NCBI GenBank assembly: GCA_048213135.1
Contig: PS015043.1
Coordinates: 153,382-188,066, forward strand
DNA from: Reclinomonas americana ATCC 50394
Taxonomy: Eukaryota
Direction of reading: 5' to 3'
Length of the DNA: 34,685 nt
Shown here: one piece after another, positions 1,840 through 34,447 of the stretch
Layout of the letters: the number at the start of each line of letters is the position of its first letter
Numbering within the stretch: the stretch's first letter is position 1
Program-made: the position numbers and the translations under genes
The notes under the pieces: model-generated
What the model saw: the letters and a program-made list of their open reading frames with translations, nothing else
What the model was told of the DNA's origin: nothing
Databases searched by the model: none

Positions 1840-4506
1840 GACAGAAGTGAGAGACACACATTCAGAAACGGAGAGACGGACGGACGGACAGACAGAGTGT
1901 GCGTGCGTGTAGAGAACAAATCGCGTGTGGGCGATACCTCTTGTACTTCCTTCACTTGGAAGAGCGGTACGTCGGGATTGGTGCGGGGAATGTCAATGTG
2001 AATCTGCGAAGAGTAGAGTGAGCGACAAGCATTCAGACTCAATCGCACATCTCTCCGCTCTGCATATTGTGCGTCGCGAGGACAATTGCTACATCTGACC
2101 ACACACACTGAGATCTCTGCTCCTCTTCACTCTGCTGTGTCCCACGCTCACTTCCCTATCTCTCCACAGAGATGACTATCTGGTCTTCGGACCAGCGCCA
2201 CGACAAATCACTCTTCTCTTTTCGTCATTCTCCTCTCAACCCCCACTCTCCCCGCGCACAGACCCACCCACACCGCCAAGCACGCCGGCTCCTCATACTA
2301 CACCGATCCACTCTTCTTCCGCTCGGGCGAGATCCGAGCAGCCATGGATCTGCACGCCTTACGGAAACGCGCGCGCTCTCTCTCTTGGCTTCCTGCTATC
2401 TTCGCAACACAAGCTTGCAGAAGGCAGCAAACACCGCGAAACCAATCCCGCACGAAGTGCGCACCACGCACAACGGCCTGACCCTTCTTTCCCCTTCTCT
2501 TCCTCTCCCCCGCTCACCTGCTTGTAAATAGCCTCCTCGTAATCATTGCGGGTGGCCGAGAAATACGTGGGCACCATCGTCAGGTACTCTTGTCGCTTCC
2601 GGTGCAGCGTGGACGCGCGGCTTTCCTCGGGACACGGCAGGTAATTCTGCACGGCATCCACATGTGCATTAGCAACTGCCAAAGATGATGGAGAAAAAAA
2701 CACGCAACAGCCAGCAGCTTCCATGAGAGCGCCCTGACGCGCACCGGAATACCCGTCCAGCTGGCCGTCCTCAATTTCTCTGCACCACCCGATAGGTTGA
2801 GGAGTGGGAAGCAGAAGAGATAGAGAGTGAGAAATGATGCGCACCGAGATCGACATTGGGGGCCGCGAGAATTCTGTCAAAGCGCTCTCCCTTGGTCTCC
2901 AGTGGGTCGTGTGGTGGTCGGTGTCGGGAGAGGCGGACGGGACCGCGCGGGGCGGAGGAGGAGGAGCTCTCCCCAGAGGATGAAATGGTGAGGGTGGCGG
3001 AGGAGGAGGCGGGGTCTGAAGGGGGGAAGAAGGGGGAAGGGGAAGGGGGGAGAAGGGGGAAGGGGAAGGGGGAGGGGGTAAGGGGGATGAAAGGGGACGG
3101 GGGATGAAAAGGAGAAGGGGAAAGGGGCAAGGGTTAGAGGAAGAAAGCGCGGGATAAAGCACAACAGATTGCGCAAAGAAACGGAGCACGAAGAAGAATA
3201 GTCAAGGAGAAAGATGGGGGAGGGACAACGAGGAACGATGTGAATGATGATAATGCTGAGGCGGAAGGGAAGAGGAATTGCAATTATAGAGCGAGAGATA
3301 CACGGNNNNNNNNNNNNNNNNNNNNNNNNNNNNNNNNNNNNNNNNNNNNNNNNNNNNNNNNNNNNNNNNNNNAGGGATGAGAAGGGGAAGAGCAGGGGGA
3401 AGAGCAAAGGGGAATGAGCAAGGCGGAAGAGCAACGGGGGAGAGCAAGGGGAAGAGCAAGGGGGAAGAGAAGGGAGAAAAGAGGGGAGAGACNNNNNNNN
3501 NNNNNNNNNNNNNNNNNNNNNNNNNNNNNNNNNNNNNNNNNNNNNNNNNNNNNNNNNNNNNNNNNNNNNNNNNNNNNNNNNNNNNNNNNNNNNNNNNNNN
3601 NNNNNNNNNNNNNNNNNNNNNNNNNNNNNNNNNNNNNNNNNNNNNNNNNNNNNNNNNNNNNNNNNNNNNNNNNNNNNNNNTAGGAAGAAAGGGAAGTGAG
3701 GGCAGAGGGGGTGGAATAGAGGGAACAGAAGGGGAGATAAGGGGAGAGAGAAGTGGAAGAAAACGGGAAAGAGAGAGAGGTGAGAGACAAGGTGAGAGAC
3801 AAGGGGAGACAAGGGGAAGACAAGGGGAAGACAAGGGGAAGACAAGGGGAAGACAAGGGGAAGACAAACTGGGAAGGCAAATGGGGAAGGCAAAGGAGGA
3901 CGAAGGGGGAAGACGATGGGGGGGGGGGAGGCAGGGGGGAGGAGCAAGGGGAAGAGAAGGGGGGAGAGCAAGGCGGAAGGGGAGGAGCAAGGGGTAAAGG
4001 AGAGAGAAAGTGAGGTGATGGGAAGGCCGAAGCTGCGGAGACACTGAACAAGAGAACAACAAGACGACAGCAATTACGTGACGACCACAGTCAAAGACTG
4101 ATCACGGGAATGCAACAACAAGAAAAAACGTCAACGATGGCACACATCACGAAAAAACATACGAGAAGGAGAGCGAGACAGCGAAACAATTCTCAATCAG
4201 CTTTCCTTCCCCTCGTCCCTGCCCTTCATCTCACCAGTCGCCGCTGCACTCGCTGCAGGCACTGCCACGGCCGCCGGTGCCACTGCATCCGCCGCCTCGG
4301 CAGTCGCATGACTGCTCGGTCCAATCGCTGCGGTTGGCTCGTCAGCACGACGATCACGAAGCACGACAAAGAGAGCGGAGACTCACCACTTGCGCTGAGG
4401 ACGCTGAGAGAAGCAAGCACACAAAAACGAGTCAGCTCACAATTCACGCGTGAATGAGCAACGCGTCACCAATAGTGATCACTCTTTCTGCTTCTTTCTC
4501 TCTCCC

Positions 4507-4579
<73 letters not shown>

Positions 4580-4935
4580 TNNNNNNNNNNNNNNNNNNNN
4601 NNNNNNNNNNNNNNNNNNNNNNNNNNNNNNNNNNNNNNNNNNNNNNNNNNNNNNNNNNNNNNNNNNNNNNNNNNNNNNNNNNNNNNNNNNNNNNNNNNNN
4701 NNNNNNNNNNNNNNNNNNNNNNNNNNNNNNNNNNNNNNNNNNNNNNNNNNNNNNNNNNNNNNNNNNNNNNNNNNNNNNNNNNNNNNNNNNNNNNNNNNNN
4801 NNNNNNNNNNNNNNNNNNNNNNNNNNNNNNNNNNNNNNNNNNNNNNNNNNNNNNNNNNNNNNNNNNNNNNNNNNNNNNNNNNNNNNNNNNNNNNNNNNNN
4901 NNNNNNNNNNNNNNNNNNNNNNNCGTCGTCGTCTC

Positions 4936-5005
<70 letters not shown>

Positions 5006-5818: not shown

Positions 5819-5894
5819 TTGATGTTTTGGATACGGTTGACTTGGTCATCAAGACAGCTGTTGCTTGTTTGTTGGTGAATGAATTGTTGTTGTT
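5819..5894. repeat. Left arm of a ~77-bp inverted repeat (partner at 7975-8051)
   Basis: Its reverse complement aligns to 7975-8051 with about 7 substitutions and 1 indel by eye; shared core TGTCTTGATGACCAAGTC(C)AACCGTATCCAAAACATCAA. Confidence 0.85.
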
Positions 5895-6479: not shown

Positions 6480-7649
6480 ATGTTCCTGCGCCAACCAAAC
6501 ATCCACTCCACCGACTCCTCCTCCGCCCCACTCACGTGCGTCGCCGTGTCGCCCGACGGACAGCATGTGGCGAGCGGAGGCCGCGACCACACCGTGCGAG
6601 TGTGGTCACTGGCGAGTGGGCGCGAGGTGCAGCGACTGGTCGGGCACCAGTCGCCAGTGACGTGTGTGGCCTTCATGGCCTGCAATGGAGGTGTGGTCAG
6701 CGCGAGTGCCGACGCCACGGTGCGCGTGTGGTCGCAGGGACAACAGGTGCAGCTGCTGGAGGGGCACTGTGAGTGGGTGGCGTCGGTGGCGACTCTGTGT
6801 GAGGAAGAGAATGGGCGCCTGGTGGTGAGCGGCGGTTCGGATCGGACGGTGCGGGTGTGGTCGGCGGAGAGTGGCACGCAGGTGCATCGGTTGACGGGGC
6901 ACGCGGGCGTGGTGTGGTCGGTGGCGCTGACGCCGGTGCACATTGTCAGCGGGAGCGAGGACAAGACGGTGCGAGTGTGGTCGGTGGAGAGTGGGTGTGA
7001 GGTGTGGTGCTTGGAGGGTGCGCATGATCGCGCGGTCAGGTCGGTCGTGTTCACGCCCGACGCGCTTCACATTGTGAGCGGCGGATTCGACATGATGGTG
7101 CGCGTGTGGTCCATGGCGACGGGCGAGGAGGTGCGGCGGTTGGCGGGGCACGAAGATGGGGTGTATGCGATCGCCATCACGGCTGACGGGGGGCGTGTGG
7201 TGAGCGCGAGTTGGGACGGCGCGGTGTGCGTGTGGTCGATGGAGAGTGGCGAGCGAGTGCAGCAGGTGGAGGGTCACCGCGACGGTGAATTCTCCGTGGC
7301 CTGCACTCGCGACGGGCAGCACATTGTCAGTGTCGGAAACGACGAGAATGTGCGCGTGTGGTCCACGCCGGGTGGTCTCGCGCGGTGGGAGCTCGACGAT
7401 GCGCGGTTGGCGGTGCGGGGTGTGAGGGAGGTGATGCAGAAAAAGGGGGAGGAGGAGGGGGAGGGGGAGGAGGGGGAGGAGGGGGAGGGGGAAGAGGGAG
7501 AGGAGGGGGAGAAGGAGAAGGAAGTGGAGAAGAAGAATAAGGAGGTGGAGGACGAGGAGGCGACGGAGGAGCGCTGCTTGGTGGAGATTGTGCTGCGCTG
7601 TTTCATCGTCGAAGAGGCCAAGGTTGTGCTGCGGAGGTGCTTCGGATGA
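6480..7649 (+). CDS. Intronless 7-repeat WD40 beta-propeller protein with acidic insert and conserved C-terminal tail (WD40-A)
   Basis: Seven GH...VSGxxDxTVRVW repeats in ORF 6075..7649. The ATG at 6480 sits just before repeat 1. Tail: ELDDARLAVRGVREV...ERCLVEIVLRCFIVEEAKVVL. Confidence 0.88.
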   Translation: MFLRQPNIHSTDSSSAPLTCVAVSPDGQHVASGGRDHTVRVWSLASGREVQRLVGHQSPVTCVAFMACNGGVVSASADATVRVWSQGQQVQLLEGHCEWVASVATLCEEENGRLVVSGGSDRTVRVWSAESGTQVHRLTGHAGVVWSVALTPVHIVSGSEDKTVRVWSVESGCEVWCLEGAHDRAVRSVVFTPDALHIVSGGFDMMVRVWSMATGEEVRRLAGHEDGVYAIAITADGGRVVSASWDGAVCVWSMESGERVQQVEGHRDGEFSVACTRDGQHIVSVGNDENVRVWSTPGGLARWELDDARLAVRGVREVMQKKGEEEGEGEEGEEGEGEEGEEGEKEKEVEKKNKEVEDEEATEERCLVEIVLRCFIVEEAKVVLRRCFG

Positions 7650-8366: not shown

Positions 8367-8665
8367 CTGAAGAGACGCACTCGGCGACCGTCCACCAGTG
8401 GCCACACGCGCACGCCCGCATCGCTGCATCCGCATGCCACGTATCGCCCGTCCGCGGACACTGCCACGCTTCGCATGGAGACTCCGCACGATCGACCGCC
8501 GAGCCAGCGCACCTCCTCGTTATGTAGCAGGGAGTACATGCGCAGGTGGCCGTAGTCGTCGGCGCTGATGACGTGCTGGCCGTCGGGGGTGACGGCGACC
8601 GACCACACAAAGGTGCGGTGCTTCGGGTGCATTTGTTTGCAGGTGTGGGGGGAGGAGGAGAACAT
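8367..8665 (-). CDS. WD40 repeat protein fragment (WD40-B), two repeats visible, cut by an N gap; may be a pseudogene
   Basis: MFSS...PKHRTFVWSVAVTPDGQHVISADDYGHLRMYSL...RSVAVSADGRYVACGCSDAGVRVW. No WD40 sequence resumes after the gap at 8347-8366. Confidence 0.65.
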
Positions 8666-8816: not shown

Positions 8817-9779
8817 ATGAGTGCCANNNNNNNNNNNNNNNNNNNNNNNNNNNNNNNNNNNNNNNNNNNNNNNNNNNNNNNNNNNNNNNNNNNNNNNNNN
8901 NNNNNNNNNNNNNNNNNNNNNNNNNNNNNNNNNNNNNNNNNNNNNNNNNNNNNNNNNNNNNNNNNNNNNNNNNNNNNTGGACACACGCATGCGGTGAATG
9001 CCGTCGCCTTCACGCCCGACAGTCGCCACGTGGTGAGTGGCAGTCACGATGAAACAGTGGTGGTGTGGTCGGTGGAGAGCGGAGCAGTCGTGCGGCGACT
9101 GGAGGGACACACGAGTGGTGTGCTGGCGGTGGCGGTGGCCCCCGACGGCCGCCACATTGTCAGCGGGAGTGGAGACAATGAGCGCGCGGTGCGAGTGTGG
9201 TCGGTGGAGAGTGGCGCACTGGAGCGGCAGCTGCCAAAGCACCTCACTCGTGTCACCTCGGTGGCCGTCACTCGCGACAGTGAGTTTGTGTTGAGTGGCG
9301 CCGACGATGGCGAGTTGCGCATGTATTCGCTGGCGCGGGGCGACATTGTGCGGCGATTCGAGGGGCACACCGGGCGAGTCATGTCGCTGGCGATGGCAGT
9401 GGACGGTGCGCACATGGTGAGTGGCAGTGGCGACAAGACCATTCGCGTGTGGTCGCTGGCGACGGGAGAGGAGACGCGACGGGTGGTGGAGCACCAGTCG
9501 GAGGTGTATTCCGTGGCCGTCACGGTGGACGGGGAGCGCGTTGTGAGTGGCAGCTGGGACAAGACGGTGCGGGTGTGGTACGTGCCGTGTGCGCGCACGC
9601 AGCATGAGCTCGATTGTGCGCGCTCGGCCTTGCGGGCGGTGAGGGAGATGCAGGCGGAGAAGGAGGAGGACAAAGTGGAGCGGCGGTGTCTGGTGGAGAT
9701 TGTGCTGCGGTGCTTTATTGTGGAGGAGGCGGAGGTGGTGCTGCATCGGAGGCGCAGTGATCCGACGTTTCATTTTTGA
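8817..9779 (+). CDS. WD40 repeat protein (WD40-C) with the conserved C-terminal tail; 5' part obscured by a gap, start uncertain
   Basis: Five WD40 repeats are visible after the gap (from 8978). Tail: ELDCARSALRAVREMQA...ERRCLVEIVLRCFIVEEAEVVLHR. The ATG at 8817 is tentative. Confidence 0.85.
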   Translation: MSAXXXXXXXXXXXXXXXXXXXXXXXXXXXXXXXXXXXXXXXXXXXXXXXXXXXGHTHAVNAVAFTPDSRHVVSGSHDETVVVWSVESGAVVRRLEGHTSGVLAVAVAPDGRHIVSGSGDNERAVRVWSVESGALERQLPKHLTRVTSVAVTRDSEFVLSGADDGELRMYSLARGDIVRRFEGHTGRVMSLAMAVDGAHMVSGSGDKTIRVWSLATGEETRRVVEHQSEVYSVAVTVDGERVVSGSWDKTVRVWYVPCARTQHELDCARSALRAVREMQAEKEEDKVERRCLVEIVLRCFIVEEAEVVLHRRRSDPTFHF

Positions 9780-10806: not shown

Positions 10807-11889
10807 ATGACCTCCCCACTCCTCTCCCTCTGCGCCACCCCCCTCGGCGACTTCTCCCCCCAACACTGCGTCGCCTTCACCCCCGATAACCAGCACTTTG
10901 TGAGCGGCGGCGAAGACCACGCCGTGCGCGTGTGGTCCGTGGCCACTGGCGCACAAGTGCAAGAGTTTGGCGAGCACACCGACGAGGTACTATGCGTCGC
11001 CGTCACTCCCGACGGCAGCCACGTGGTAAGCGGAGGCAGTGACATGACTGTGCGAGTGTGGTCGCTGGCGACGGGCGAGGAGGTGCGCAGACTGGAGGGC
11101 CACACCATGTATGTCAGCTCAGTGGCTGTCGACGACCTGCACATTGTCAGTGGCAGCTGGGACAAGACTGTGCGCGTGTGGTCACTGGCGACAGGCGAGG
11201 AGATGCGACTCTTCAACCGGCACACTGGGTGGGTGCTGTGTGTGGCCATCACCGTCGACGGGCGGTATGTGGTGAGTGGCGGCACGGATCGAGTGGTGCG
11301 CGTGTGGCAAATGGACAATGGACGCGAGGTGTGCCACCTGGACGGGCACGTCGACGGTGTGCAGTGCGTTGCGGTCACGCGCGATGGTCGGCATGTGGTC
11401 AGTGGTGGCTCGCGGGATGGCATGGTGCGAGTGTGGTCGCTGGTGACGGGCAAAGAGGTGCAGCGGTTGGATGGACGTGTGCATGCGGTGAACTCGGTGG
11501 CGATCACGGTGGATAGTCAGCGAGTGGTGTGCGCCAGCAATGATTGCACTGTGCGCGTGTGGTCGCTGGCGAGTGGCGAAGAAGTGGCACCGAGGGTGAA
11601 AGTCGATGCGTGGAGCGTGGAGGCGGTCGCTGTCAGTGCGGATGGGCAGTTTGTGGCGAGTGCCGGCGGTGGCGAAATGGCGCTGTGTCTGTGGGCGACG
11701 CCGTGTGGGCTCGCGTCTCGTGAGCTTGCGCGGGCGCGGTTTGCTCTGCGCGCGGTGCAGGAGATGCAGGCGGCGGAGGGCGAAGTGGAGCGGCGGTGTC
11801 TGGTGGAGATCGTGCTGCGCTGCTTCATGGTGGAGGAGGCGGAGGTGGTGATGCATCGCTGCGCGACAGATCCGGCGTTGCGACTGTGA
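10807..11889 (+). CDS. Intronless 7-repeat WD40 protein with the conserved C-terminal tail (WD40-D)
   Basis: 360-aa ORF with seven WD40 repeats. Tail: ELARARFALRAVQEMQA...ERRCLVEIVLRCFMVEEAEVVMHR. Confidence 0.9.
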   Translation: MTSPLLSLCATPLGDFSPQHCVAFTPDNQHFVSGGEDHAVRVWSVATGAQVQEFGEHTDEVLCVAVTPDGSHVVSGGSDMTVRVWSLATGEEVRRLEGHTMYVSSVAVDDLHIVSGSWDKTVRVWSLATGEEMRLFNRHTGWVLCVAITVDGRYVVSGGTDRVVRVWQMDNGREVCHLDGHVDGVQCVAVTRDGRHVVSGGSRDGMVRVWSLVTGKEVQRLDGRVHAVNSVAITVDSQRVVCASNDCTVRVWSLASGEEVAPRVKVDAWSVEAVAVSADGQFVASAGGGEMALCLWATPCGLASRELARARFALRAVQEMQAAEGEVERRCLVEIVLRCFMVEEAEVVMHRCATDPALRL

Positions 11890-12126: not shown

Positions 12127-12198
12127 ATGCTCTTCCAACGCGCCGCCGCTCTGTTTGCGCGGCACCCACTGCGCTGTATTGTTGCGTCTGTGTGTGTG

Positions 12199-12239
<41 letters not shown>

Positions 12240-13862
12240 ATCACACATCCTTTGCTCACTTCTCTCCTCTCCACACAAAGGGCACACTGGCGGGCGCCGC
12301 TGGTGTCGCCTACACTGTGCCTCAGGTGCACACAGCTCGCGGACCAGACCCGCCGCTCGCCTTGGCTGTCGGCAAAATCCAGCTGACAGAGGACGGCGAC
12401 GAGTCGAGTGCGGCCGACTTGCGTTCTCACGCGCTCTCCAACTGGTGGATGGCAAAGGACCTGGACGATCGGTACACATTCGTTATTCAGGCCATCAAGG
12501 ACGGCATGCTGGCGATGAAGGAGTATCGTGGCGGCCTGGCCGACTTGTCGTACGCCGTCTTCCGTCATGATCATCCCAATACCGAGGCTGGCAAGGAGGC
12601 CAAGAAGCAGACGAGCTCCGCCACTCCCGAGGGTCGTGTGGCCATTGTGCAGCAGGCGCTGGCTGTGAAGGCCTCGCGTGCCGGTATGGAGAATGTGCGC
12701 CAGTTGTTCCAGGGCCTGCAAGTGAGCCGCGCCGATGACACCATTGTTGTTCTCGTTGCGTCGGGGAGGGGGAATAGGGGGAAAGGGGGACAAGGAGAAG
12801 GAGGGGGAAAAAGAGAAGGAGGGGGACGAGGAGAAGGAGGGGGACAAGGAGAAGGAGGGGGACAAGGAGAAGGCAGAGGAGATGAGAGGGAAGAAGGGCG
12901 ATGGAGGGGATGAGAGCAAAAGACGGAGAAAGAGAGCGATCGACGATGACAGCGACTGGGAGGGAGAGAAGTCGGAGAAGAAGGAGAGAAGACAGAAAAA
13001 AGAGAAGGAAGACGGGGCGATGCGAGAGTGAGAGCAAAAGACAGAGAAGAGCGAGAATGATGGTGAGAGCGTGTGAGAGAGAAAGTCAGAGGATAAAAGG
13101 GGAGAAGACAGCAAGAAGAGAAGCAAGGCGGGCGATGCAGGCGAGTGAGAGCAAACGACAGAGAAAGAGAGCGATCGACGGAGATTGAGAGTGGGAGGGA
13201 GAGAAATCGGAGAAGATGGAGAAGACAGCGAAAAGAGAAGCAAGACGGGTGATGTAGGGGAGTGAGAGCAAGCGACAGAGAAAGAGACAGCGAGGGAGAG
13301 GGAGAGTGGGGGCGCAAGAGACACACATACATGAAGGAGGGAGAGACATAGTGAGAGCAAGGCAGGAGACAGATAGACAGTCAGTGTTGGAGAGAGTCTC
13401 ACCGACAGGCTATCTCAGCTGAGGAGAGGCAGGCACTCAAACTGCACGCAGATGGTTCTTTGTCTCTTTCCTGTCCGTCAGTTGAGCCACTTCTACTCTT
13501 GTCCTCTCCCTCGCGGTCTCTGTCGTCTCTCTCTTTCATTGTCTTTTCCCTCTGTCTCCAGTTCTCACCCATGCTCCTTTCTTTGTATTTTCCCTGTCCG
13601 ACAGTTGAGCTTCTCCCCTTTCCTCGCCGTCTCCGACGGTGTTCTCTCTTTCTCTGTCGTCTGTTTTCCCACTCCCACTCCTTCTCTTTGTCTCTTTCCT
13701 GCCTTCTTTCCCCCTTGTACTTGCCAGCTCTGTCGGTCTTTCTCTCTCTCTTGTTCTCTCTCCCACTCTCACTCCTGCCACAACTTTTCCTTGTCCCTTC
13801 TCCCCATTTTCCCATTTTCTCTTCTTCTTTCCCACTTCCTTGTCGGTCATTCTCTTTTGGTC

Positions 13863-13898
<36 letters not shown>

Positions 13899-16257
13899 GT
13901 TCCCTCACATGCTCCTTCTCCTTGTCTTATACTTGGTCGGCAGTTGAACTTCTCCGCTTTCTCTCTCTCTGTCCCTCGCACTCTCTGTCGGTCCTATTCC
14001 CTGTCCTTCCCCCCCTCCTCCTTCTTTCCCCCTTCTGCTCACTTCCCTTCTTTCGTGCAGGTGGACCACAAGCACCGCGAGATCAACATTTGCATCGCTG
14101 GTACGCGTGCCAGCTTTGCCACCGCCAGCGACTTTTGGACCGACTTCAAAATGGTCACCGGACTCGGTGGCCCCAATGAGCGTTTCGACGAAGCAAAGGA
14201 GGTGATGCAGTGGGTGTTTGACGAGCTCGCTCCCGCATGCGCCAGGAGCCGCGCTGATTCGTTTGGCGGTGAGGCGGCGGGTGAGAAGCCGGAGCGGCAT
14301 GAGTACCGCGTGTGCCTGCATGGCCACAGTCTTGGATCGACGATTGTGAGTGTGAGGTGGAGGGGGAAGCAAGGGGGAAGGGATGGAGGGAAGGGATCTG
14401 ACGGATAGGAGGGGAGGGAAGGGAAGGGTAGAGAAGGGAAAAAGAGAGGGAGGAGAAGGTAGAGAAAGCAAAGGGAAGCGACAGAAGGGAGAAAAGGGAA
14501 GGGAAGGAAAGACAACGAGAGGGAGAATGAAGAAGGGATGTGACAGAAGAGAGAGAAGCGGAGTGAAGGCTGGTGCAAGACAAGGAGACGGTGAGACGAG
14601 AAGGAGAGTGTGAATTAGGGAAGAGATGGGAAGGAGGGAAGGAAGGGAAGGAAAGTGAGAAAATGAAAGCGCGAGAGGAGGAGACGGAATGAAGACCGGG
14701 AAGGCAAGGAAAAGCAGGGAAAGGAAGGAAGTGACGGAAGGAAAGGAGACAAACGAGAAAAGTGAGAATGCCAGGGAAAGAAGTGAGAAGGAAAGAGATA
14801 GGGATGATATTGAGACAGAGACAGGGAACGGAAGCAAAGGGAAGGCAAGAAGAGAGAACAGCGCGGAAGGCCTGAAAGAAGAGAGCCAGAGATGGGAAGG
14901 AGAGAAGGAAAGGAAAGAAAAAGAGAAAATGAGAGCGCGAGAGGAGAAGACGGAATGAAGACAGGGAAGGCAAGGAGGGAAGGGCATGGGAAGGAGGGAA
15001 AGGAGGCAGCGAGAAAAGTGAGCGTGCCAGGGAAAGGAGAGAGAAGGAAGTGAAGGGTGGGAAGATGGAATCGAAGGGAAGGCAAGAAAAGAGAACGACG
15101 CTGAAGGCCTGAGAGAAGAGAGCCAGAGAGGGGGGAAGGAAGAAAGGCGGGGGAATAGACGGAGTGACAACGCGTCAAGACACTCGGGCTTGAATGAGCG
15201 AAACACCGAACCGTGTGAGAAGGAGAAGAGTTTTTTTCGCTTCTCTCTCTGTGTGTGCGCATCATCTTCCGCTTGATGTTCCGCACTCTGTGTCCTTGAA
15301 TGCTGCGAGTATAGGTACACGAGACTTGTTGGCGATCACTGGTAGATGCTCATTGTTGTGTGTGGATCAGTGAAGTTGCTAGAATAGTGAGNNNNNNNNN
15401 NNNNNNNNNNNNNNNNNNNNNNNNNNNNNNNNNNNNNNNNNNNNNNNNNNNNNNNNNNNNNNNNNNNNNNNNNNNNNNNNNNNNNNNNNNNNNNNNNNNN
15501 NNNNNNNNNNNNNNNGTGAGAATGTGTACAGGAGAGATGGGCGACGAGACTGTGTCCGTTCTTTTCCTTCCTATTCATGCAGGGGAGTGAGAATGTACAT
15601 GTGTACAGGAGAGATGGGCGACGAAACTGTGTCCGTTCTTTTCCTTCCTATTCACTTCTCTCTTTCCCCCTCCCCTCTCCCCCATTGCACAGGCCCTCTG
15701 GCTCAACACCAGCGACCTCGCGCAAGACAATCGAGTCAACGTGTACGCGTTTGCCACCATTCCGCCGCCCCTCTCGTGGGCGCTTGGAGACAAGTGGAAC
15801 ACGGCGGCGCAGACGCAGAACAGTGGCGACTCGGTGAGCACAGATCTCATACATATTTCGCGTTAACTGCCTTGCTGACACATTGTGACTACGTGCAGGT
15901 CGCCACCACTCCTATTCTGGCGCGCGTTCAGCAGCCGACCATCACTGGCGTGCGCCACAGCGGCGGTTGCGTGCACACGTACTCCAACGAGGAGGATCCC
16001 TTGACGCAGGGAGCCTCCTCCACCCGTTCATTCTTGTACGGCATGTTTGGTGGCATCAAGCAGAACTTTGTCGCGNNNNNNNNNNNNNNNNNNNNNNNNN
16101 NNNNNNNNNNNNNNNNNNNNNNNNNNNNNNNNNNNNNNNNNNNNNNNNNNNNNNNNNNNNNNNNNNNNNNNTTCCCCGGCGCCGTGTCCCATCGAGTGAC
16201 CGCGCTCGGGCACAGTGCGCGTCACTTTGACGACACGTTCTTCTGCGGTTCGTAAGA

Positions 16258-16288
<31 letters not shown>

Positions 16289-18315
16289 AGGGAGAGAGTG
16301 ATACTGAGTGTGTGAGGGAGACACGAAGTGGGGTCGAGAGGAGTCACGCTTTTTGCCGACTTTGTGTCGTTGTCTATTGACATTCACTTTTAACAGCTCT
16401 TGGGCCTGGTGACGAGGAATGGTTGGAGGCGATCAAGAAGCCGCTTCTCGAGATGCTCAAGGACGCCACGAGCACTCGCTCGGTCAATGGTTTCATGGAT
16501 CCCTACAGAAAGGCGCTGAAGAAGGTCAACGACTACAACCTCGACATTCAGCAGACGAGCAAGGTGCAAAGTGCGCTGGTGCAGAGCATGGGAAGCGCTT
16601 GGACTGGTACGTGTGCACTTGGCAATGCGCAACACGACGACGTGTTCACTCATCGCACGACAGCCCTCGTTCGTGACGCCCGGGAGTACGAGAAGGACGC
16701 GGCCGCTGCTCTCGAGGTGTTCACGTTGTTGGACAACGCCACAGTCGACTCNNNNNNNNNNNNNNNNNNNNNNNNNNNNNNNNNNNNNNNNNNNNNNNNN
16801 NNNNNNNNNNNNNNNNNNNNNNNNNNNNNNNNNNNNNNNNNNNNNNNNNNNNNNNNNNNNNNNNNNNNNNNNNNNNNNNNNNNNNNNNNNNTGTGCTCTT
16901 CAATTTGCGCGGTGATGGTTCGGATACAATAGCGGGTTCATTACTTTGATTGCTGCGACTGAGACTCTTCCCTGCAGACCCGGCTCTCTGGGCGAATTAC
17001 CTGGAGAAGCTCGAGACGGACATTTTTGGAGCTCACCGAATTCGTGAGTTCCGCATCATGTTCTTCTGTCTGTCTTGTCGGTTGCTGACTGTGAGTGCGC
17101 AGCCGAGGATCAGCAGAACATGCAGCGCTGGCACGTGGCTGCCTACATTGCGACGAACATTGCTGCCGAGCACGATATGCCCCGCCTGGTATGCACAGCT
17201 CATTCCCTCGTTTTGCATTCCATCTCCCACTCTGCTCACTCTTCTCCTCACACAAGGTGCCCGTGGAGGTGGCCAAGCGTGCGGCGACAATTCTCCGAGC
17301 CTGCGTTGAGAGTTACAAGCGGCTCCACCCGCGTGGTTCTGATGTCGACACTCTGCCGATGCAGATGCAACTGGCCGCGGCACTGCGCGCCTCGGGCATG
17401 CACGACGAGGCCGCAGCGTTGCTGGCGGGCCTGATTGACAAGGGCACACTTCTCCTTCAGACGCTGTCAGGCAGCATCACTCTGCAGCGCAACGTCGAGT
17501 TGGAGCTGGTGCAGTTGCAGCGCCGGTTGGCACTGGTGCTCTACGACTCTGGCAAGTACGACGACGCGGTGGCGGTACAGGAGAAGGCCGTCAGGTCGAT
17601 CAGCAGGCTCCTCGGCGACAGCCACCCGAACACCATCGTGGCGCGCAGTCACTTGTGGATGGCCAAGGTCAAGGCCGCTCGCCACCAGTCGGTGACGCCC
17701 GACTACCGGGAGGCACTGGACGCACAGTTTGAGGCGCTGTCGGTGGCGGAGAGCATGTTTGGCCGTCATCATCCCATGACGCTAATGGCGTGCGGCTTCC
17801 TCGCGCGGACCATTTGCAAGCAGGGCAACTATGACAAGGCGGAGCGCATGCAGCGCAGCATGCTGGCGGCCAATCGCCGACTGTACGGCTACTCGGACCA
17901 CCGCGCCGCCGAGGCACAATCGGCGCTCGCGCTGACGCTGCGTGCGAGAGCGGTGCGCGGTCGCGTGTCGGACGCCGAGCGAGCGAAGCTGCTGCAAAAG
18001 GCGGAGGGCATGCTGCGTCAGGTCTGTTCGCAGCTGGCAAGCACAGTCGGCGCCGCCAGCCAGGCTACCATTCGTGCGCAGTGCCGGTTGGCGTCGACGC
18101 TGTTCTACGAGGGCAAGTACGAGGAGGCGCGGAGAACGCAGCAGGTGGCGTGCAATGCTTCACGGCAGCTCGGAGAGCAGCATCCGCTGGCGAGGTCGAG
18201 CCAGGAGAAGATGGAGCGGATTGTGAGGAGGATGGCGAGAGAGGTGGGAGGTGGTGGTGGTGGTGGTGCAGCTCCGGAGTTGGCGGGGGCGGGGGTGGTG
18301 GTGGGTGGGAGGTGA
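12127..18315 (+). CDS. Class-3-lipase-like alpha/beta hydrolase fused to KLC-type TPR repeats. Exons: 12127-12180, 12281-12754, 14061-14345, 15693-15833, 15899-16247 (spans gap), 16397-16917 (spans gap; possible 57-nt intron 16607-16663), 16978-17043, 17103-17188, 17257-18315
   Basis: Spliced product reads DTIVVL|VDHKHREINICIAGTR, LHGHSLGSTI|ALWL (nucleophile elbow at 14322-14336), YSNEEDPLT (candidate catalytic Asp) and GHSARHF (candidate His). The last exon has LGDSHPNT, FGRHHPMT...QGNYDKAE and LGEQHPLA, typical of kinesin-light-chain-like TPRs. The fusion depends on the phase-1 intron 16248-16396 (G|GTTCGT...TAACAG). Confidence 0.75.
15516..15655. repeat. Intronic tandem duplication, two copies of ~60-70 bp
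   Basis: TGTGTACAGGAGAGATGGGCGACGA(G/A)ACTGTGTCCGTTCTTTTCCTTCCTATTCA occurs twice. It lies next to a gap, so it could be an assembly artefact. Confidence 0.7.
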
Positions 18316-22805: not shown

Positions 22806-25800
22806 TTACTCCACTGCAGCCGACACAACGGGCGCCGGTGTTGCCTCGGCCAACAGCTGAGCGGCCAACTCACGCGCATCGTCGGGCACCTTGCCACGCA
22901 CACCACCGTCCACCACTCCGCCGGCAGCCGCGAACGCAGCAATGATGCGCCACTGGAAGGTGTCGCGCTGCGGAGAGGAGAAGGGGGACGCAGGGAAGAG
23001 AGTATAAGAGGCGGCACTGTCTCGAAGAGAGAGAGAGAGGGAAAGGGAAAGGGAAAGAGGGATAGAAAGAGAACCGACTAATTTGAACAAAATCTATTGC
23101 GCTGCGGGGAGGAAGGGGAAGAGGCAGAAGGAGAATATTAGAGCAGGGCACTGGCTCAAAAAGTGAGAGATTGAGCAGCGTGGCAGTGCAGAGAAGTGAA
23201 AAGGGAGATGTGAAGCAAGAGAATGCAAGACTGGGCACCGTCTCGAAGAGAGAATAAGAAACAGATTCCAGAGAACGCATTCGAGACGAAGGCTTCGCGC
23301 TGCGGAGAAGTTAAGAGACGGACAAGAACCAAGAAAAGGAAGACTAGGCATTCGATCGAAGTGTGCGTGAGAGCACTATATGCAAAGAAGGGAAGAGGGA
23401 GACTGGAAACAGAAGTGGGCACTCGATTGAAGAGAGAAAAAGCACAGATTAGTGCTGCAGAGAAGTGAAGAGGGAGACAGCAAGCAAGAGAATGCAAGGC
23501 TGGGTACTGGCTCTGTAAGAGAACAGGATAGGGATTCGAAAATACGCATTCGAAAGGAAGGCATCGCGCTGCGGAGAATAAGAGACGAACAGGAACCAAG
23601 AAAAGGAAGACTGGACATTCGATCGAATTGTGCGTAAGAGCACGATACAGAGCTGCAAAGAAGGGGAGACCGAGACAAGAAACAAAAGAATGCAGGGGTG
23701 CAAGGCCACAGAACAGTGCTGCAGAGAAGTGAAGAGGGAGACAGCAAGCAAGAGAATGAAAGGCTGGGCACCGTCTCGAAGAGAGAATAAGAAACAGATT
23801 CCAGAGAACGCATTCGAAAGGAAGGCATCGCGCTGCGGAGAAGTGAAGATGGAAGACATGAGAACATGAAAGACTGGAACTACCTCGAAGGGAGAGAAGG
23901 AACACATATGCATTCAAGAGCAATAGTCAATCGTACAGTGTATAGAGAACCATGACCAAACAAGAGAATGCAACACTGAGCAGAGGAACACTATAACCCA
24001 ACACTTTCTCTTTCCCTCTCTACCCCCACACGCAACTCCCCCCACCGGCCGCCTCTCCAACTGCCGCAAAAAATTACGCAGCAGCGACTCCTGATCCACC
24101 TCCTCCAAATCCGCAAACGCCCGACTGTTGCCCGGCTCCAACTGAATCAACACCGTAATAATATCGGCCGCCGCCGCCAGCACCTCATCGGGCACCTCTC
24201 CGCCCACAGTGGCCACCGCCGCCGCTGCTGGCGCTCCTGATCCCGATCCACTTGCACCTCCCGCATCGGCATCCTCCTCACTCTCTTCCGTGACTCCACC
24301 ATCACCCTCCTCCTCTTCCTGATCTTCACCCTCCTCCCCCTCATCATCCTCGTCACCGTCATCATCGTCATCTTCATCGTCGTCGTCGACGGCGCGTGCC
24401 TCCAGCGACAGCAAGTCCGGCAGATCGCACCCCGTGCAAATCGCAAATGCAGTGTACTCGGGAGACACGGCATTCTGAGTTGCTCGTTCAAGTGAGGGAA
24501 GGGCGTCAACACACTAGAATGGCAAGGCAGGAACACACCTTGTAGCCCTCGAGAAGAAGCCACCGCTTCACTTGCTCGGCCAGTCGTTCCTCTTGCGCGA
24601 GGAGTGTCACCTGTCGCCCCGAAAGTGAGTGATGATTGCGAGTGCTGTGCATCTTTGTGGGGGGCACACGTAACGATGAAAATGCGACCCCACGTCGAGG
24701 TGGCGATGCCGAGCTGCACGAGCGGGGCTTCGAAGAATTGCAGCGTCTGCAGGGTGATAAAGGGTTGTGAGCAATAGAGGAGAAGGCCAGGGATTGTGAA
24801 AAGCACAGGAGAAAGAGAGTGGAAGGGAAAAGGAGAGTGAAAGGGGAAAGGAGAGTGGTGGCATTCAGTAGCGGGGATATCGGCAAGGCCAATGGTTGTG
24901 GAAGAACTGGAATCTTTGTGAGAATGAGAGTGGAAGACAAAGGCGTCATGAGAACTGTTGTTGAAAGGCCGAAGAATCGCGGAATGACGACGAGAGCGAG
25001 ACTGGAATTGACCACAGAAAGAAACACAGCGAGGCGAAGAAGGGGAACATTGGACAGGTGCAGGGAGGAGAAGAGCAGACTTGCATGGACCAGCATTCTG
25101 CACAGTGCGGCAGTCGCGAGAAGTGGTAAGTGCACTGACTTCGACATACCTGGAAAAACACACGCGCAGAGTACCACGTGAACTCCTCGCAGCAGCCTAC
25201 AGTCATCGTCGCCTGCGCATCGAAATCAGTGTCTCGCAACGCCTTCTCCTCTTCTACTTCCTTCCGCTGAACTAACCTCATAATCCTTCTCCGTCATCTG
25301 CTGCGCGCTGAGCGACCACAGCAACAACCCGGCCTTCACAACCACACGATCCGGACTCTGACGCACAAGTGCCTGCCACCCAGCGCGCACTCAGCAGACG
25401 CATCACACACAGGAAGCGCCACAAAAATGCTCGCACCTTGGCAAACTTGTAGCACATTTCACCGTCGAGTCCCTTTCTGCGCTTTTGCAGTCCCTTGGAC
25501 AGCTGCATCAGCAGAGTGAGCACAGCAGAGACTGAAGCAGGTCTCATCATTAGCACCAGCACGCAACTCGCTCCATCAACGGAAACGCGCTGGCGATAAA
25601 GGGCGTCTTGTCGTGCGTGTAGGTGGTGGTGAGAAACTCGTAAAACTCAATTACTGCCGTCGCCAGCTCGGCAGCGTTCGTGCCGGCGGCCAGCACGCGC
25701 GCAAGCAGGTCGTGGAAAGTGTCCACATGCGACGCATCCTCGGCGTCCGGGTTGGTGTAGAAAAAGTGTCCGTCCATGCTGCCTGCGTGGTGGTGGTGGT

Positions 25801-25906: not shown

Positions 25907-27591
25907 GGCGCGGAAGGGGCTTTCGGCGACCACTGGATGGGGGAGGAAGAGATGAGCAAGGGAGCAAAGCCGCAGATCGCGACAAGTACCCATTCAATCA
26001 CATCACAGTTATGCACACTCCGGCACACATTACAAACGATGATGCAAAGATGAGAGACGAGGAGAAGGCGTTGAGTGGTGACAACGTGAGGGTGCTGAGC
26101 GGTGACAAGGAAAAGGTGCTGAGTGGAGACAAAGAAATCATGCAGAGTGGGCATCACGATTATGACTGACGCAGTATGAGCTCCAGAGAGTACAACTCAA
26201 TGCAAATAGGGAATCGACGGAGGACAGATTAGCAGTCACAGTTTCAGAGTGCAGCACTGACTGAGGGAGCGGGCTGTTGCATGATGCAATGCAGACAAGC
26301 ACCCAACAGTTCAGCAACAAACAGACATCATCGACAGGTCATGGCAATGCAGAACGAGCGACGGTACGATGTAGAAGCGAGAGTGCCGAGTAAGAACACG
26401 CACTGAACCTGCGGAGAGCCAAGCGACAATCGAATCCTCTCGGCGAGTGCTTCTGCTCGTCGCTTGCAAACTCACTCAACCCTCATTACTGTGACGCCAT
26501 CTGTGCTTCTCTTTTTGCTCTTCTGTGGCCTTGTTTCCGCCTCTTCACACTCTGCTTCTGTTCTCAGAATCTTTGCCTGTTCTCTCGGTCCCTCTTAAAC
26601 ACTCTCCATTTCTATGCTTCTCTCTCTCTCTCCCATCTGTTGCTATTCTGTATTCTCTATTCTGATTCCACGTTACTTTGCATCTGCATTTCCTCACTCC
26701 TTGTGCTTCCTCCTCTGAAGTTCCTCCGTTTCCGCCTCCTTGTCTCTCAGTTTCTGCTTTGAACACGCTTGTTTGTCTGCCTCTCTCGGTCCCTGTCAAT
26801 CACTCTCTCCATTCTCGTGCAGTACTCGCTCTCTCAGGTGCTCTGGCTCTTCTCCTTTTTGCTGCCTTGTAACTCGGCATCTGCAATTCCTCTCTCTTTG
26901 TGTCGCTCTAGCTCGTCTCGTTTCTGCTGCCTCCGAANNNNNNNNNNNNNNNNNNNNNNNNNNNNNNNNNNNNNNNNNNNNNNNNNNNNNNNNNNNNNNN
27001 NNNNNNNNNNNNNNNNNNNNNNNNNNNNNNNNNNNNNNNNNNNNNNNNNNNNNNNNNNNNNNNNNNNNNNNNNNNNNNNNNNNNNNNNNNNNNNNNNNNN
27101 NNNNNNNNNNNNNNNNNNNNNNNNNNNNNNNNNNNNNNNNNNNNNNNNNNNNNNNNNNNNNNNNNNNNNNNNNNNNNNNNNNNNNNNNNNNNNNNNNNNN
27201 NNNNNNNNNNNNNNNNNNNNNNNNNNNNNNNNNNNNNNNNNNNNNNNNNNNNNNNNNNNNNNNNNNNNNNNNNNNNNNNNNNNNNNNNNNNNNNNNNNNN
27301 NNNNNNNNNNNNNNNNNNNNNNNNNNNNNNNNNNNNNNNNNNNNNNNNNNNNNNNNNNNNNNNNNNNNNNNNNNNNNNNNNNNNNNNNNNNNNNNNNNNN
27401 NNNNNNNNNNNNNNNNNNNNNNNNNNNNNNNNNNNNNNNNNNNNNNNNNNNNNNNNNNNNNNNNNNNNNNNNNNNNNNNNNNNNNNNNNNNNNNNNNNNN
27501 NNNNNNNNNNNNNNNNNNNNNNNNNNNNNNNNNNNNNNNNNNNNNNNNNNNNNNNNNNNNNNNNNNNNNNNNNNNTCCTTCGTTCGTTGTC

Positions 27592-27638: not shown

Positions 27639-27747
27639 CTCTCTCTGTCTCTCTCCCTCCCCCTCTCACTCTCTCATTCTCATTTCCTTTCCCCTTTGAT
27701 CTCTCTCTCTCCCTCCCCCTTCCCCCTCTTTCCCCCCTCCCCGCAAC

Positions 27748-28772: not shown

Positions 28773-29823
28773 TCACTCCCTCACCCCCCTGAACAGATAG
28801 TTCCGGGGAATCCCATCCTCCGGCGAGTTATCGCGCGGATAATCCTCCACAAACTTCTTCGACGCCGCCGGAATCAACCCAAAATCGGCCTCCGCGTCGC
28901 CAAACTGACTCACCGTCACGCGAAAGCCGAGCTCGGCAAACCACGGCTCCGGTTTGTTCACGCCGCACACCGGAAGCGCACCGTGCCGGCCCCACACCTC
29001 CCGCAACTTGGCCACCGCCGGCGACGTCATGTGCAACTCGTTCAGCACATCGCCGCACACCACACTGCCCGGGGCACACAGGTGCGCCACGCGACGCATA
29101 AACGTCTCACAGTCGGCCAGCGGCAGGTACATGAGCAGGCCCTCGAGCAGCCACACACTCGGCTGCGTGGCGTCGTAGCCGGCGGCCACCAGCGCGCGCT
29201 CCCACTCGTCGCCCGCGGCCAAGTCGGCGGCCACCGAGTGAATGGCGGCACACAGTGGCGCCGCCGCCTCCTGCTGCACGCTGTCGAGCACGCGTCGTCG
29301 CATCTCCATCACCTCCGGCACATCGATCTCGTACACGTGCACGTGGGCCAGCACCTCGGCGGCGGGAGGCGGGGCCAGTGGGCGCCAGAAACGCGCGTCA
29401 CCACCAATGCCGGGAATGACGACTTGGCGGGGCGCAGCGGAGGAGGAGGAGGAGGAGAGCGCCTCGGACACTGCGCGGTCCATGAACAGCACGCGTGCGT
29501 TGGCGTAGTCGGAGAGCGCGGTGACGGTGGTGTGCAGTGAGGAGGCGAGGTCGTCGAGGAAGTCGCTGAGGGGAAGGGGGGGGGGAAAGGGTGGGTGGAA
29601 AGGGGAGAAGGGCGGGGAGGAGAGACGGACAACTCACCGTCCTTCTTTGCCTGCAAACGCCTCTGCAAAGGGATCGACAAACTGGCGCACGGAGTCGTCC
29701 TTGGCGGTCTCCAGAGCGCGGCAGGCTGCACATGGAGGCACAGAGAGCATGAGTAGGCAAGAAACGGGGGAAGTGGGAGAGAAAAGAGAGAGGAGAGAGG
29801 GGGAGAGAGAGACAGAGAGAGAA

Positions 29824-31570: not shown

Positions 31571-31600
31571 TGTGTGAGAGAGTGTGTGTGAGAGAGAGCG

Positions 31601-32097
31601 ATGAATAAGCAGGCGTTTGAGCAGCTGCTCGATGCGATGCAGGATGCCACAGTTGCGTCTCAAACTGGGGGGGGGAGGGAAAGTGAGAGGCAATGTCCAT
31701 GTCACACTTGCGTGCAAAGAGAGAGTGTGTGTGAGTGTGTGTGAGAGAGAGGTATAGTGAGCGTGACAGGTGCATATTGTGTGTCTGTGTGTGATTTCGC
31801 GCGCGGACTTGTCTTTTTGTCACTTTCTTGCAATGCAAACCCTCTCTGTCACTCTTTCTCTCTTTCTCTCTCACTCTCTTGCACACCGACGAGAGAGAGA
31901 GAGGCTGTCGTGCTCGGAGGGTGCCTTAGTGCGTGTGAAAGGGGCACAACACTTGTATGCAAAGGGATGCGCACATTCGGAGAAAAAGAGAGACAGAGAG
32001 AGGAGAAGGAGAGTGACTGTGTGTCTGTCTGTGTGAGGGAGAGGGGCCCAATATAAACAGTTGTCTGCAGAGAAACACACACAATCGGAGAATGAGG

Positions 32098-32129
<32 letters not shown>

Positions 32130-32192
32130 AAGAGGACTTGCACAGAAGCGGAGTCTGTGCGTGTGAGAGACAGCGAGTCTCGATACCTCCAC

Positions 32193-32231
<39 letters not shown>

Positions 32232-34447
32232 CTTGTTTGCTGACTTTTACTCCGCCTTTTGTTGCAGACTTTGGTGATTGATGGCACTCTGTCGCCTGTC
32301 CAGCTGCAGCAGGTGCTGCTGTTGATGCCGTCGTGGCCGTGGGTGGCACGAGTGCATGTGGAGGGTGAGTCGGAGATACGGGCGGGGCGGATGCAGATTG
32401 ACATTGAGGAGGTCGATGCTTATGGCCTCCGCTTTGTTCTCTCTCGCCCTCGTTCTCGATTTCCCATCAGCGAGTCGTACCCTTCTTCGTTTCCAAACTC
32501 TACGTCGCTTTGTCCATCACCTTTGTCGACAGATCTCTCGAGACAGTAGAGCGTGCATGCGTGAGTCATTCTCCTTCTGCTTCCTGCATTCTATCTCATG
32601 CCTTCTTTCTCCTTCCTTCTGTGTCCCTATCCCTCTCTCACTCCCATCCACCGCACAGGCACCAACATGACACCCGAGATGGCTAACGCACTCGCCGAGT
32701 TCTTCTCCACGAACAACTCCGTGCTGCAGTTCACGATTAGCGGTGAGTCTCACTCCTCCATATCTTCCGTGACCACAACTCATTCTCTGGTGCAGACATC
32801 CCACTGTCGACGCAGATCATGAGCATTCTCAGCAAGGGCTTGGTGAATAACCAGAGCCTGGAACTCATTGCTTTCCGTGGTACGTTAATTGCTGACACGA
32901 TGATTCTTTCGTGCAGATTTCTTTCTGTTCCTCCGTTTCTTCTTCTCTTGGGTGGGACTGCTGTTCATCCCCTCGCTAATAATGTCCATCTTCTCTCGTA
33001 TTTCTCTTGTTGCATTTCCTGGTCCCTCTCCACTCTCTGCGTCACCCTTTATGTTCCACATTCCCTTCCGGTTCCATTTCATCCTCATATTCTGCTTCCC
33101 GCACTCTTTCCCTTCTCCCTTGGCCTTCTCCCTTGGTCATCGCCTGTCTTCCCCCGTGTGCTTTCCCCCTTGAGCCTCCCCTCGTGCTTCGCCTCGTGCT
33201 TCTCCTTGTGCTCCCCCCCCCTTGCGCTACCCCTTTGTGCTTCCCCCTTGTGCTTCCCCCTGTTGCTTCTCCCTTTGCTCCCCTCTCCCCTCCTCCTTCC
33301 CCTTTTCTTCTCTTCCCCCTTTCCCCCCTCCTTCCCCTTTCCCTCATCCTTCCCCCTTTCCCTCATCGCCCTTCCCCCCCTCAAGGCTGCTCGATCGTCG
33401 GCGGCGGCCTGGAAGCCCTCCGACCATTCGTCGAACGCAGCCGCCGACTGCGCATGCTCGACCTCTCGCGCAACAAAATCACTGGCGCCCCTGTCGGCTC
33501 GCTGGCCAGCGCCCTCGCCGAGGCCAAGCTGTCCCTCCGCGCCCTCTTCCTCAGCGCCAACCCGCTCACCGACGACAACATTCGCCTGCTCGCCATGGGC
33601 ATTCTGCAATCGCAGCGATTGCGCGAGTTTCGCGTGACGAGTTGCGTCTGTCCCATCATCTTTCACTGTCATCGGCATTCTCACCTTTTTTTCCCTCGCA
33701 CACAGATTGCGTGTCGGCGGCGGCCGCCCGCCACATTGCCACGCTGGTGGAGGAGAATCCCGTCTCTCTCCGCGTGCTGGACATCAGTGCCGGCGCCATC
33801 AGCGACGACGGCATGATTGCCATTGCGGCGGCGCTGTTGAAGAACTCGCACCTGAGCGAGCTGCACGCGGCGGGCAATCCCATCACGGACGCCACGCTGG
33901 AGGCGTTTCGCGATGCACTGCATCCGACTCGCGGCAACCAGACACTGCAATTGTTGGAGATTGCGACCGATGCACAAAAGTCGTCGTTTAACCGGCACCT
34001 GTTGGCCGAGGTAGAGTCGTTGTTGTTAGTGCAAGTGCGGCATCCGAGTGGTGGTACGTGCCCCACCCTTGATTCACAATTGTTCTCTCTATTCCCTCAC
34101 ACCTGATTTCCTGGTACAAGCAGATGCACTAGCGGTCCCTCGCGCACGGCAATTCGTGCGCGACGGCGACAAGGAGGACTACAGCAACCTGTCCGCCTTC
34201 CCCGGTGTGTTTGATCGCGACGCTGATGATGACGACGATGCGCTGCTGGTGGAGGACACGGGCGACATTATGGACATGTTGGACGAGGAGGATTTGGAGG
34301 ATGTGGCGGAGGACATTGAGTTTGCGTATGAGGACGAGCTGGCGGCGGAGTTTGCCGAGGGGGACTATGCGGACGATGGTGGAGATGCGCTGATGGGAGG
34401 AGTGGAGGAGGGGGTGGAGGCGCCGGTGAGGGTGACGTCAACTGCTG
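31601..34447 (+). CDS. RNI-like leucine-rich repeat protein with acidic C-terminal region; 3' end lies outside the window. Exons: 31601-31651, 32268-32364, 32659-32742, 32796-32879, 33386-33640, 33706-34053, 34124-34447
   Basis: ~28-residue repeats LRMLDLSRNKITG, LRALFLSANPLTDD, LRVLDISAGAISDDGMIAIAAALLKN and LSELHAAGNPITD. Intron phases are all compatible. Confidence 0.85.

Follow-up and report, generated by a model that had tools for sequence, protein, structure and literature searches.

A stretch of 34,685 bases from Reclinomonas americana ATCC 50394 (contig PS015043.1; hereafter the window, taken at its full length) contains a heptanucleotide, GTTRCGT with R being G or A, that recurs at the ends of predicted exons in four genes and there always follows a base other than G. 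At eight of its 12 occurrences the motif reads in the sense direction and coincides exactly with an in-phase exon end; of the introns that begin there, one, at 2708(-), is proven by homology, and another, at 33641(+), is forced by the reading frame. A class of GTTGCGT donors, as predicted from these data, is probably real, and most of the eight sites are probably true donors. The eight strings had been pointed out in a first-pass annotation of the same DNA and all of them were found again at the coordinates and on the strands that it had given (Table 1). In what follows, a caret marks the cut, positions in the intron are counted from +1 and the last exonic base is -1.

Occurrence of the motif and motif-blind gene chaining

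On both strands together GTTRCGT was counted 12 times, compared with 5.24 +/- 2.24 in 100 shuffles, only one of which reached 12. The major form, GTTGCGT, is present ten times and seven of these are exon ends. The same string closed by A, C or G instead of T (GTTGCGA, GTTGCGC or GTTGCGG) was also found 12 times in the window; the only possible donor among them is that at 27747, and several others lie within regions scored as coding. The site at 27747(-) had been put forward as a candidate ninth donor, and of that proposal the presence of the string GTTGCGG was confirmed.

Exon ends were also called by an exon-chaining program of our own, which learned codon usage from the clearest coding stretches of the window, scored every GT alike and was applied to the four gene regions. 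This donor-blind program chose 14 donors, and at four of them (31652, 33641, 25567 and 24036) the string was GTTGCGT, which accounts for 10 of the 3,742 GT and 10 of the 657 GTT on the two strands. The binomial probability of four in 14 against all GT is 5e-8. GTT being a poor codon in this DNA, the program favours it at exon ends; conditioned on this bias, the finding that four of its seven GTT picks were GTTGCGT still has a probability of 1.8e-6. Elsewhere the program was noisy and took, for example, TAC^GTTAAT, 2 nucleotides (nt) from G^GTACGT. This noise is a reason for caution with regard to the donor census given below, and not with regard to the motif-blind result.

The junctions at 2708 and 33641

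The junction at 2708 interrupts a gene for a TBC1D22/Gyp1-like RabGAP. Residues 4-26 of the upstream exon (...GIPVRVRALSWKLLA, ending in WKLLA) align to residues 41-63 of 2qfz_A and 42-64 of 6d0s_A, and residues 2-42 or 2-43 of the downstream exon (NYLPCPEE...) align to residues 66-106 and 67-108, respectively. The residues at the two exon ends adjoin each other in both human proteins (at 64 and 65 of 2qfz_A, between the aligned residues 63 and 66), and the junction is therefore contiguous. The anchor WKLLA^NYLP proposed in the first-pass annotation thus holds without a gap, to the residue, against the structures of TBC1D22A and TBC1D22B. The next junction of the same gene, with the ordinary donor CAG^GTGAGC, served as a control and is equally contiguous (108^109 in 6d0s_A). 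No other GT or GC at 2708 yields the TBC protein.

Removal of the intron restores a protein matching its homologues at 2708; at 33641 the support comes from the frame and from the leucine-rich repeat (LRR). The acceptor CACAG^AT together with the LRR frames on both sides demands a phase-1 donor, and A^GTTGCGT at 33641 is the only GT in that phase. Even a gene model that admitted canonical donors only, with T at +3 penalised, took this site. The exon 33386-33640 has 255 nt, corresponding to 28, 29 and 28 codons, and therefore the intron lies in repeat codon 8, like the three introns preceding it. The 11-mer CCATCATCTTT is common to the introns at 2708 and 33641 (2690(-) and 33654(+)), is located 12-20 nt past the donor and is found nowhere else in the window.

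If the introns were of the GC-AG kind, the true cut would be made 3 nt further on (..GTT^GCGT..), in the same frame and with one codon added to the exon. GC does stand at +4/+5, three letters past the GT, in seven of the eight sites, and a move by 3 nt is invisible to arguments from the frame. By eye, repeat 6 of the LRR gene would then have 29 residues with its hydrophobic and Ser/Thr landmarks at 11, 12, 19, 20 and 23, in line with the remaining repeats, whereas the GT cut needs a deletion of one residue in the LxxLxLxxNxL core of that repeat. The same move, however, would shift the LRR intron one codon off the position common to the three preceding repeat introns. In TBC1D22A as in TBC1D22B, LL and YLP are separated by exactly two residues; two are given by the GT cut and three by the GC cut. 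The site at 24674 has AC at +4/+5, so that a GC donor is excluded there and GC is not found at every member of the class. The bases usually found upstream of GC donors in the exon are AG; here the conserved upstream bases would be an exonic GTT, kept unchanged across unrelated genes and across phases and placing T at -1, the position taken by G in 20 of the 23 ordinary donors. Taken together, these observations make GC-AG introns a very unlikely explanation. A donor 5 nt downstream (..GC^GT..) was rejected as well, since it breaks the frame at the TBC site.

The six further candidate sites

Frame and homology had been said to force the donors. This is true of 2708, by homology, and of 33641, by frame, and it does not hold for 12181, 31652 and 24036, which are not forced. 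An intermediate position is taken by 24674, 25567 and 12755, where the proposed donor is the only in-phase GT, or the only one bearing the motif, and homology adds nothing. The site at 24674 is the only GT in phase and has frame and coding potential as its support. At 25567, the only phase-0 GT, the frame stops 5 codons past the donor; an alternative acceptor for this intron is GCGTCAG^AGT, ending at 25358. Three in-phase GTs are present near 12755 (12746, 12749 and 12755), of which the last alone carries the recurrent motif; the donor-blind model chose 12746 and a model that rewarded the motif chose 12755. The donors at 12181 and 31652 follow ATG exons of 18 codons (12127-12180) and 17 codons (31601-31651), respectively, each in phase with its acceptor, which supports but does not force them. 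Within the intron proposed for 24036 three tandem copies of 130 nt, 78-92% identical and spaced by about 265 nt, were observed at 23187-23849.

The gene spanning 12127-16750, which contains the donor at 12181, had been described as a lipase, with TIVVL^VDHKH as an anchoring junction. This homology was not reproduced: neither Pfam nor PDB nor either of two protein searches returned a lipase, and the only lipase-like trait of the gene is a GHSLG motif. No Pfam match, class 3 lipase included, was obtained at E up to 10, no lipase was found in PDB, and a search of the GHSLG exon against 1.84 billion protein representatives gave no relative, the single match being a spurious repeat protein. Two exons of this gene likewise had no annotated-protein match in a homologous-protein search.

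Misplaced exon ends must also be considered, since in-phase GT-AG pairs are easy to find where GC-rich DNA keeps frames open; most of the strings would then not be used as donors, with the exception of one or two sites. The frames are indeed open beyond six of the eight sites checked, a homologue that would constrain the junctions is lacking for three of the four genes, and the donor-blind model is visibly noisy. A heptanucleotide expected about five times would nevertheless have to sit at eight in-phase exon ends by accident, four of these ends were picked by a model that did not know the motif, two junctions (2708 and 33641) are independently anchored, and the association with the -1 base described below would not come from misplaced models. 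Wholesale error in the gene models is thus unlikely.

Donor census and the base preceding the cut

The motif sites were compared with a census of 23 ordinary donors, 15 of them read by hand in the four motif-bearing genes and eight called by script in other genes; for the script-called donor at 29637 there is rough support from a bacterial homologue spanning the intron. The two groups differ in the last exonic base. G occupies -1 in 20 of the 23 ordinary donors and in none of the eight motif sites (Fisher p=2.1e-5), and the contrast holds when only the four motif-bearing genes are counted, with 14 of 15 and none of eight (p=1.8e-5). The rule that the motif avoids a preceding G, which the first-pass annotation had formulated, was hence upheld by the new counts. 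In half of the motif sites (4/8) the -1 base is A. As to the share of the class, its recurrence stands, and our own count is eight of 31 modelled donors instead of the earlier eight of about 39.

In the ordinary donors +3 is G in 16, A in five and T in two, +4 is A in nine, C in nine and T in five, +5 is G in 21 and C in two, and +6 is T in 15. The motif class presents the ordinary-donor sequence one position later, that is T and then G or A, C, G and T. Donors of GTGAG type (9/23) and of GTRCG type (8/23) are about equally common among the ordinary ones. All eight displaced sites, in contrast, have the CGT form and none is GTTGAGT, C being present at the matching position in nine of the 23 ordinary donors (p=0.0035). 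The sites had been characterised as the common local donors with one additional T; the displacement by one nucleotide and the anticorrelation with G at -1 agree with this, and the class is nonetheless not a shifted sample of all donors.

A single loose signal, in which donors are poorly conserved beyond GT and T is tolerated at +3, would reduce the recurrence of the motif to an accident of sampling. The ordinary donors are varied (GTATCG, GTGTCC, GTTAGT, GTTCGT and GTATGC among them), and two of them combine T at +3 with G at -1. Seven identical heptanucleotides and one single-base variant among 31 donors would, however, not be drawn from a loose matrix, and in these sites +3 to +6 are all off consensus together, with +5 being C in 8/8 as opposed to G in 21/23 ordinary donors. 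This explanation is accordingly regarded as most improbable. The two ordinary-register donors that combine T at +3 with a preceding G are GAG^GTTAGT at 25276(-) and GCG^GTTCGT at 16248(+), and position +3 seems to be unusually tolerant of T in this organism.

In other respects the introns of the motif class look ordinary. They measure from 62 to 1306 nt, carry CTAAT or CTCAC motifs 17-25 nt before the YAG, and all eight start with GT and end at an in-phase AG acceptor, mostly CAG, as U2-type GT-AG introns do.

Pairing with U1 and the proposed mechanism

Pairing was scored against the standard 5' end of U1 as printed in PMC9311317, from which the U1 of this host may differ. The motif sites (n=8) form 3.75 pairs on average in the canonical register, 7.4 in the register shifted by +1 and 7.0 with the U at +3 bulged out, compared with 7.1 for ordinary donors (n=23) in the canonical register. 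The shifted and the U-bulged registers are indistinguishable by sequence.

The reading preferred here is that of a displaced register. The eight introns would belong to the U2-type GT-AG introns and would begin with a separate, second type of 5' splice site, N^GUU(G/A)CGU, representing the local G^GU(G/A)CGU signal displaced by one nucleotide into the intron. The spliceosome would first recognise such a site most likely through its UGCGU core, with U1, and later U6, pairing one nucleotide displaced or with one U bulged out. The intron's own G at +1 would take the place of the last G of the exon, and the cut before GU would be fixed at the catalytic stage. For this explanation as stated a probability of about 0.5 is given. 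We infer from the sequence features that each of the eight sites serves as a donor in vivo and that displaced-register pairing is the means by which they are recognised.

Several observations weigh against this reading. The nearest-neighbour energies of the duplexes with standard U1 average -1.1 kcal/mol in the motif sites as opposed to -6.9 kcal/mol in the ordinary donors, and the invariant C goes unpaired whether the register is shifted or bulged. Under a plain shift, GTTGAGT donors would be expected, and among the four GTTGAGT strings in the window no recognisable donor was found, one being exonic and three having no assignment. As regards the junctions, all eight are predicted, and five of the eight have frame and coding potential as their evidence and lie in genes with no detectable homologues. 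The short ATG exons upstream of 12181 and 31652 could be wrong. At 24036 the frame continues open for a further 45 codons, and CCG^GTGGGG at 24046, 10 nt upstream, is a rival donor in phase. The core spacing of LRR repeat 6, in the by-eye alignment, is better with a donor 3 nt downstream of 33641. The census, finally, is small; eight of its 23 ordinary donors are script-called only, and that at 28784 is doubtful. The earlier description of the sites as displaced donors agrees with the -1 anticorrelation and with the pair counts, and it fits poorly with the weak energies and with the restriction to the CGT form.

A dedicated recogniser could take the place of displaced pairing, either as a variant U1 or other factor matching GUUGCGU or as a sole U1 optimised for GUGCGU, in which case the donors would follow a second grammar instead of making weak, off-register use of the ordinary one. 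This would agree with the CGT form of all eight sites, seven of them identical heptanucleotides, set against the nine of 23 ordinary donors with the matching C, with GTTGAGT donors not being seen in the window and with the very weak duplexes predicted for the standard U1 end. The T at +7 also appears to matter, as GTTGCGT stands at exon ends in seven of ten cases and its counterparts closed by another base supply a single possible donor at 27747. A U1 complementary to GUGCGU would moreover explain why a bulge is tolerated in the GC-rich form only. No small nuclear RNA (snRNA) gene was detected in the window by Rfam, however, either at the gathering thresholds or at E up to 1; the GTGAG type is as frequent as the GTRCG type, which does not suggest a GUGCGU-tuned U1; and the sample comprises eight sites. 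Such a recogniser is on balance rather unlikely. The far-reaching form of the idea would be a major spliceosome with two 5' splice-site grammars, in which about a fifth to a quarter of introns carry N^GUUGCGU, the 5' end of U1 is non-standard and cleavage routinely takes place one nucleotide off the recognition register. The non-standard U1 would be either a second, variant U1 matching GUUGCGU or a single GUGCGU-tuned U1 tolerating a bulged U. At present this must be considered unlikely.

Comparison with known systems

Shifted and +2/+3 bulged U1 registers have been established experimentally in human cells, as described in PMC4856993 (Tan et al. 2016), where, out of 201,541 human 5' splice sites, 68 are assigned by prediction to the +2/+3 bulge (54 after curation) and all noncanonical registers together account for 2.1% of human 5' splice sites. 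The human shifted-register sites (Roca and Krainer 2009, as described in PMC4856993 and PMC9311317) resemble the present ones in starting with GUU, after which a consensus-like tail comes with a delay of one position, and in having the cut made at GU. Their poor canonical and good one-shifted pairing with U1 is matched here in the pair counts, though not in the predicted duplex energies. They are rare, whereas here eight of 31 modelled donors belong to the class; their tail is AAGU, whereas here it is GCGU with an invariant mismatching C; and, unlike in those sites as described there, the tie to a non-G base at -1 is absolute in the present sample. In the bulged +2/+3 register (Roca et al. 2012), GU-U-GCGU would loop out one U and pair like GUGCGU, with the mean of 7.0 pairs given above, but this model leaves the avoidance of G at -1 unexplained. 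The class resembles both registers, and membership in one or the other is not claimable from sequence. What appears to set it apart from the human registers is its frequency, the exactness of the heptanucleotide and the fact that G never occupies -1. GUUGCGU, GTTGCGT, GUUACGU and GUGCGU were not found as splice motifs in the main texts of the open-access literature; where the string stood inside longer words, the matches listed were primers or otherwise unrelated. Among the matches listed there for noncanonical registers across species only mechanistic work on human and yeast was encountered, and within this literature such a donor class was not found described.

Two further systems were compared and rejected as explanations. 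U12-type introns also form a discrete second donor class with a long invariant motif. Their donor box is RTATCCTT, which is absent from the eight sites, and the branch-like motifs found here lie 17-25 nt from the AG and resemble those of ordinary local introns. Introner-like elements share with the present introns the recurrence of a donor string in unrelated genes, but the intron bodies here show no significant likeness. Local alignment of five short motif-class and seven ordinary introns, with splice signals removed and 200 shuffles per pair, gave no within-class pair above z 2.8, and the TBC/LRR pair stayed below z 2.5 despite its common 11-mer. The introns are thus no more alike than shuffles allow, which speaks against a common origin of this kind.

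Genes of the window

Masked N make up 2,694 bases of the window, spread over 11 runs. Coding stretches are GC-rich, and microsatellites and purine runs fill the introns and spacers. The features mentioned in this work are listed in Table 1. Downstream of the GTTGCGT at 5985(-) a TTGCAG follows at 49 nt, and the segment 5937-5985(-) could be an intron of the GTTGCGT class in a 5' untranslated region. All three WD40 paralogues have the C-terminal tail ..ERRCLVEIVLRCF.. in common, and between the first and the second of them a WD40 fragment is present in opposite orientation at 8378-8632(-). In each of the inverted paralogues the matching exon is followed by a GTGCGT donor, with G at -1 in one copy and A in the other.

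The exon of the methyltransferase gene was confirmed as belonging to the LCM family by the protein atlas. Its matches in the protein search were bacterial TIGR00027-family proteins only, with at most 36% identity, the best being actinobacterial, and no eukaryote was present among its named relatives (50 matches, most of them without a name); the gene may have been acquired from bacteria. The LRR gene was confirmed as being of the ribonuclease-inhibitor type by PDB searches with two LRR exons. Metagenome scans with an LRR exon and with an exon of the duplicated gene gave no relative. The only Rfam matches in the window were microsatellite hairpins resembling microRNA models. The palindromic (GA)n/(CT)n microsatellite at 32079-32238 gave sub-threshold matches to many plant microRNA models on both strands, which represent a low-complexity artefact.

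Table 1. Proposed introns of the motif class, other occurrences of the motif and genes in the window (nt, nucleotides; LRR, leucine-rich repeat)
Feature	Position	Strand	Description
Intron, TBC1D22/Gyp1-like gene	2647..2708	-	62 nt; donor GCT^GTTGCGTG; CTAAT branch-like motif; acceptor GTGCAG^AAT; phase 0
Intron, GHSLG-motif gene	12181..12280	+	100 nt, (GT)n run inside; donor ATT^GTTGCGTC; acceptor ACAAAG^GGC; phase 0
Intron	12755..14060	+	1306 nt, purine-rich; donor CTC^GTTGCGTC; acceptor TCGTGCAG^GTG; phase 0
Intron	22968..24036	-	1069 nt; donor GGA^GTTGCGTG; acceptor CTCCGCAG^CGC; phase 0
Intron	24611..24674	-	64 nt, between two 72-nt exons; donor ATC^GTTACGTG; CTCAC branch-like motif; acceptor GCGACAG^GTG; phase 0
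Intron	25503..25567	-	65 nt; donor CGA^GTTGCGTG; CTCAC branch-like motif; acceptor GATGCAG^CTG; phase 0
First intron, ribonuclease-inhibitor-like LRR gene	31652..32267	+	616 nt; donor ACA^GTTGCGTC; acceptor TGTTGCAG^ACT; phase 0
Intron, LRR gene	33641..33705	+	65 nt; donor CGA^GTTGCGTC; acceptor GCACACAG^AT; phase 1 (A^AT = Asn)
GTTRCGT	8	-	at the window edge
GTTGCGT	5985	-	about 570 nt upstream of an ATG at 5412 on the same strand
GTTRCGT	8254	+	opposite or beside the minus-strand WD40 fragment
GTTRCGT	15966	+	preceded by G; inside an open, coding-looking frame; probably exonic
GTTGCGG	27741..27747	-	candidate ninth site; followed by a purine repeat and masked N 26938-27575
TBC1D22/Gyp1-like RabGAP gene	left end	-	Pfam RabGAP-TBC match; PDB matches TBC1D22A, TBC1D22B and Gyp1
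Three tandem WD40 paralogues	6534-7634, 8982-9767, 10891-11865	+	about 7 very similar repeats each
GHSLG-motif gene	12127-16750	+	3' of the WD40 paralogues
TPR gene	after the GHSLG-motif gene	+	
Inverted paralogue pair	20097-20987 and 22092-21194	+ and -	family unknown; 89% identity over 76 residues
Gene C	right of the inverted paralogues	-	no family match
LCM/TIGR00027-type methyltransferase gene	28785-29726	-	with intron
LRR gene, ribonuclease-inhibitor type	right end; predicted first exon 31601-31651	+	LRR_6 and LRR_1 above cut-offs

Implications

Gene finders that employ a single donor matrix would misplace or miss exon ends of this kind in the lineage of R. americana, and this may be part of the reason why protein searches gave no annotated proteins for these genes. 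If RNA data confirm the junctions, the genome would make unusually common use of an off-register splice signal. If one off-register heptanucleotide marks at least a fifth of introns, the register between recognition and cleavage would be a stable and selected property of a genome. The organism would then be a natural setting in which to study how the cut site is determined, as well as the co-evolution of snRNA ends and the splice-site consensus.

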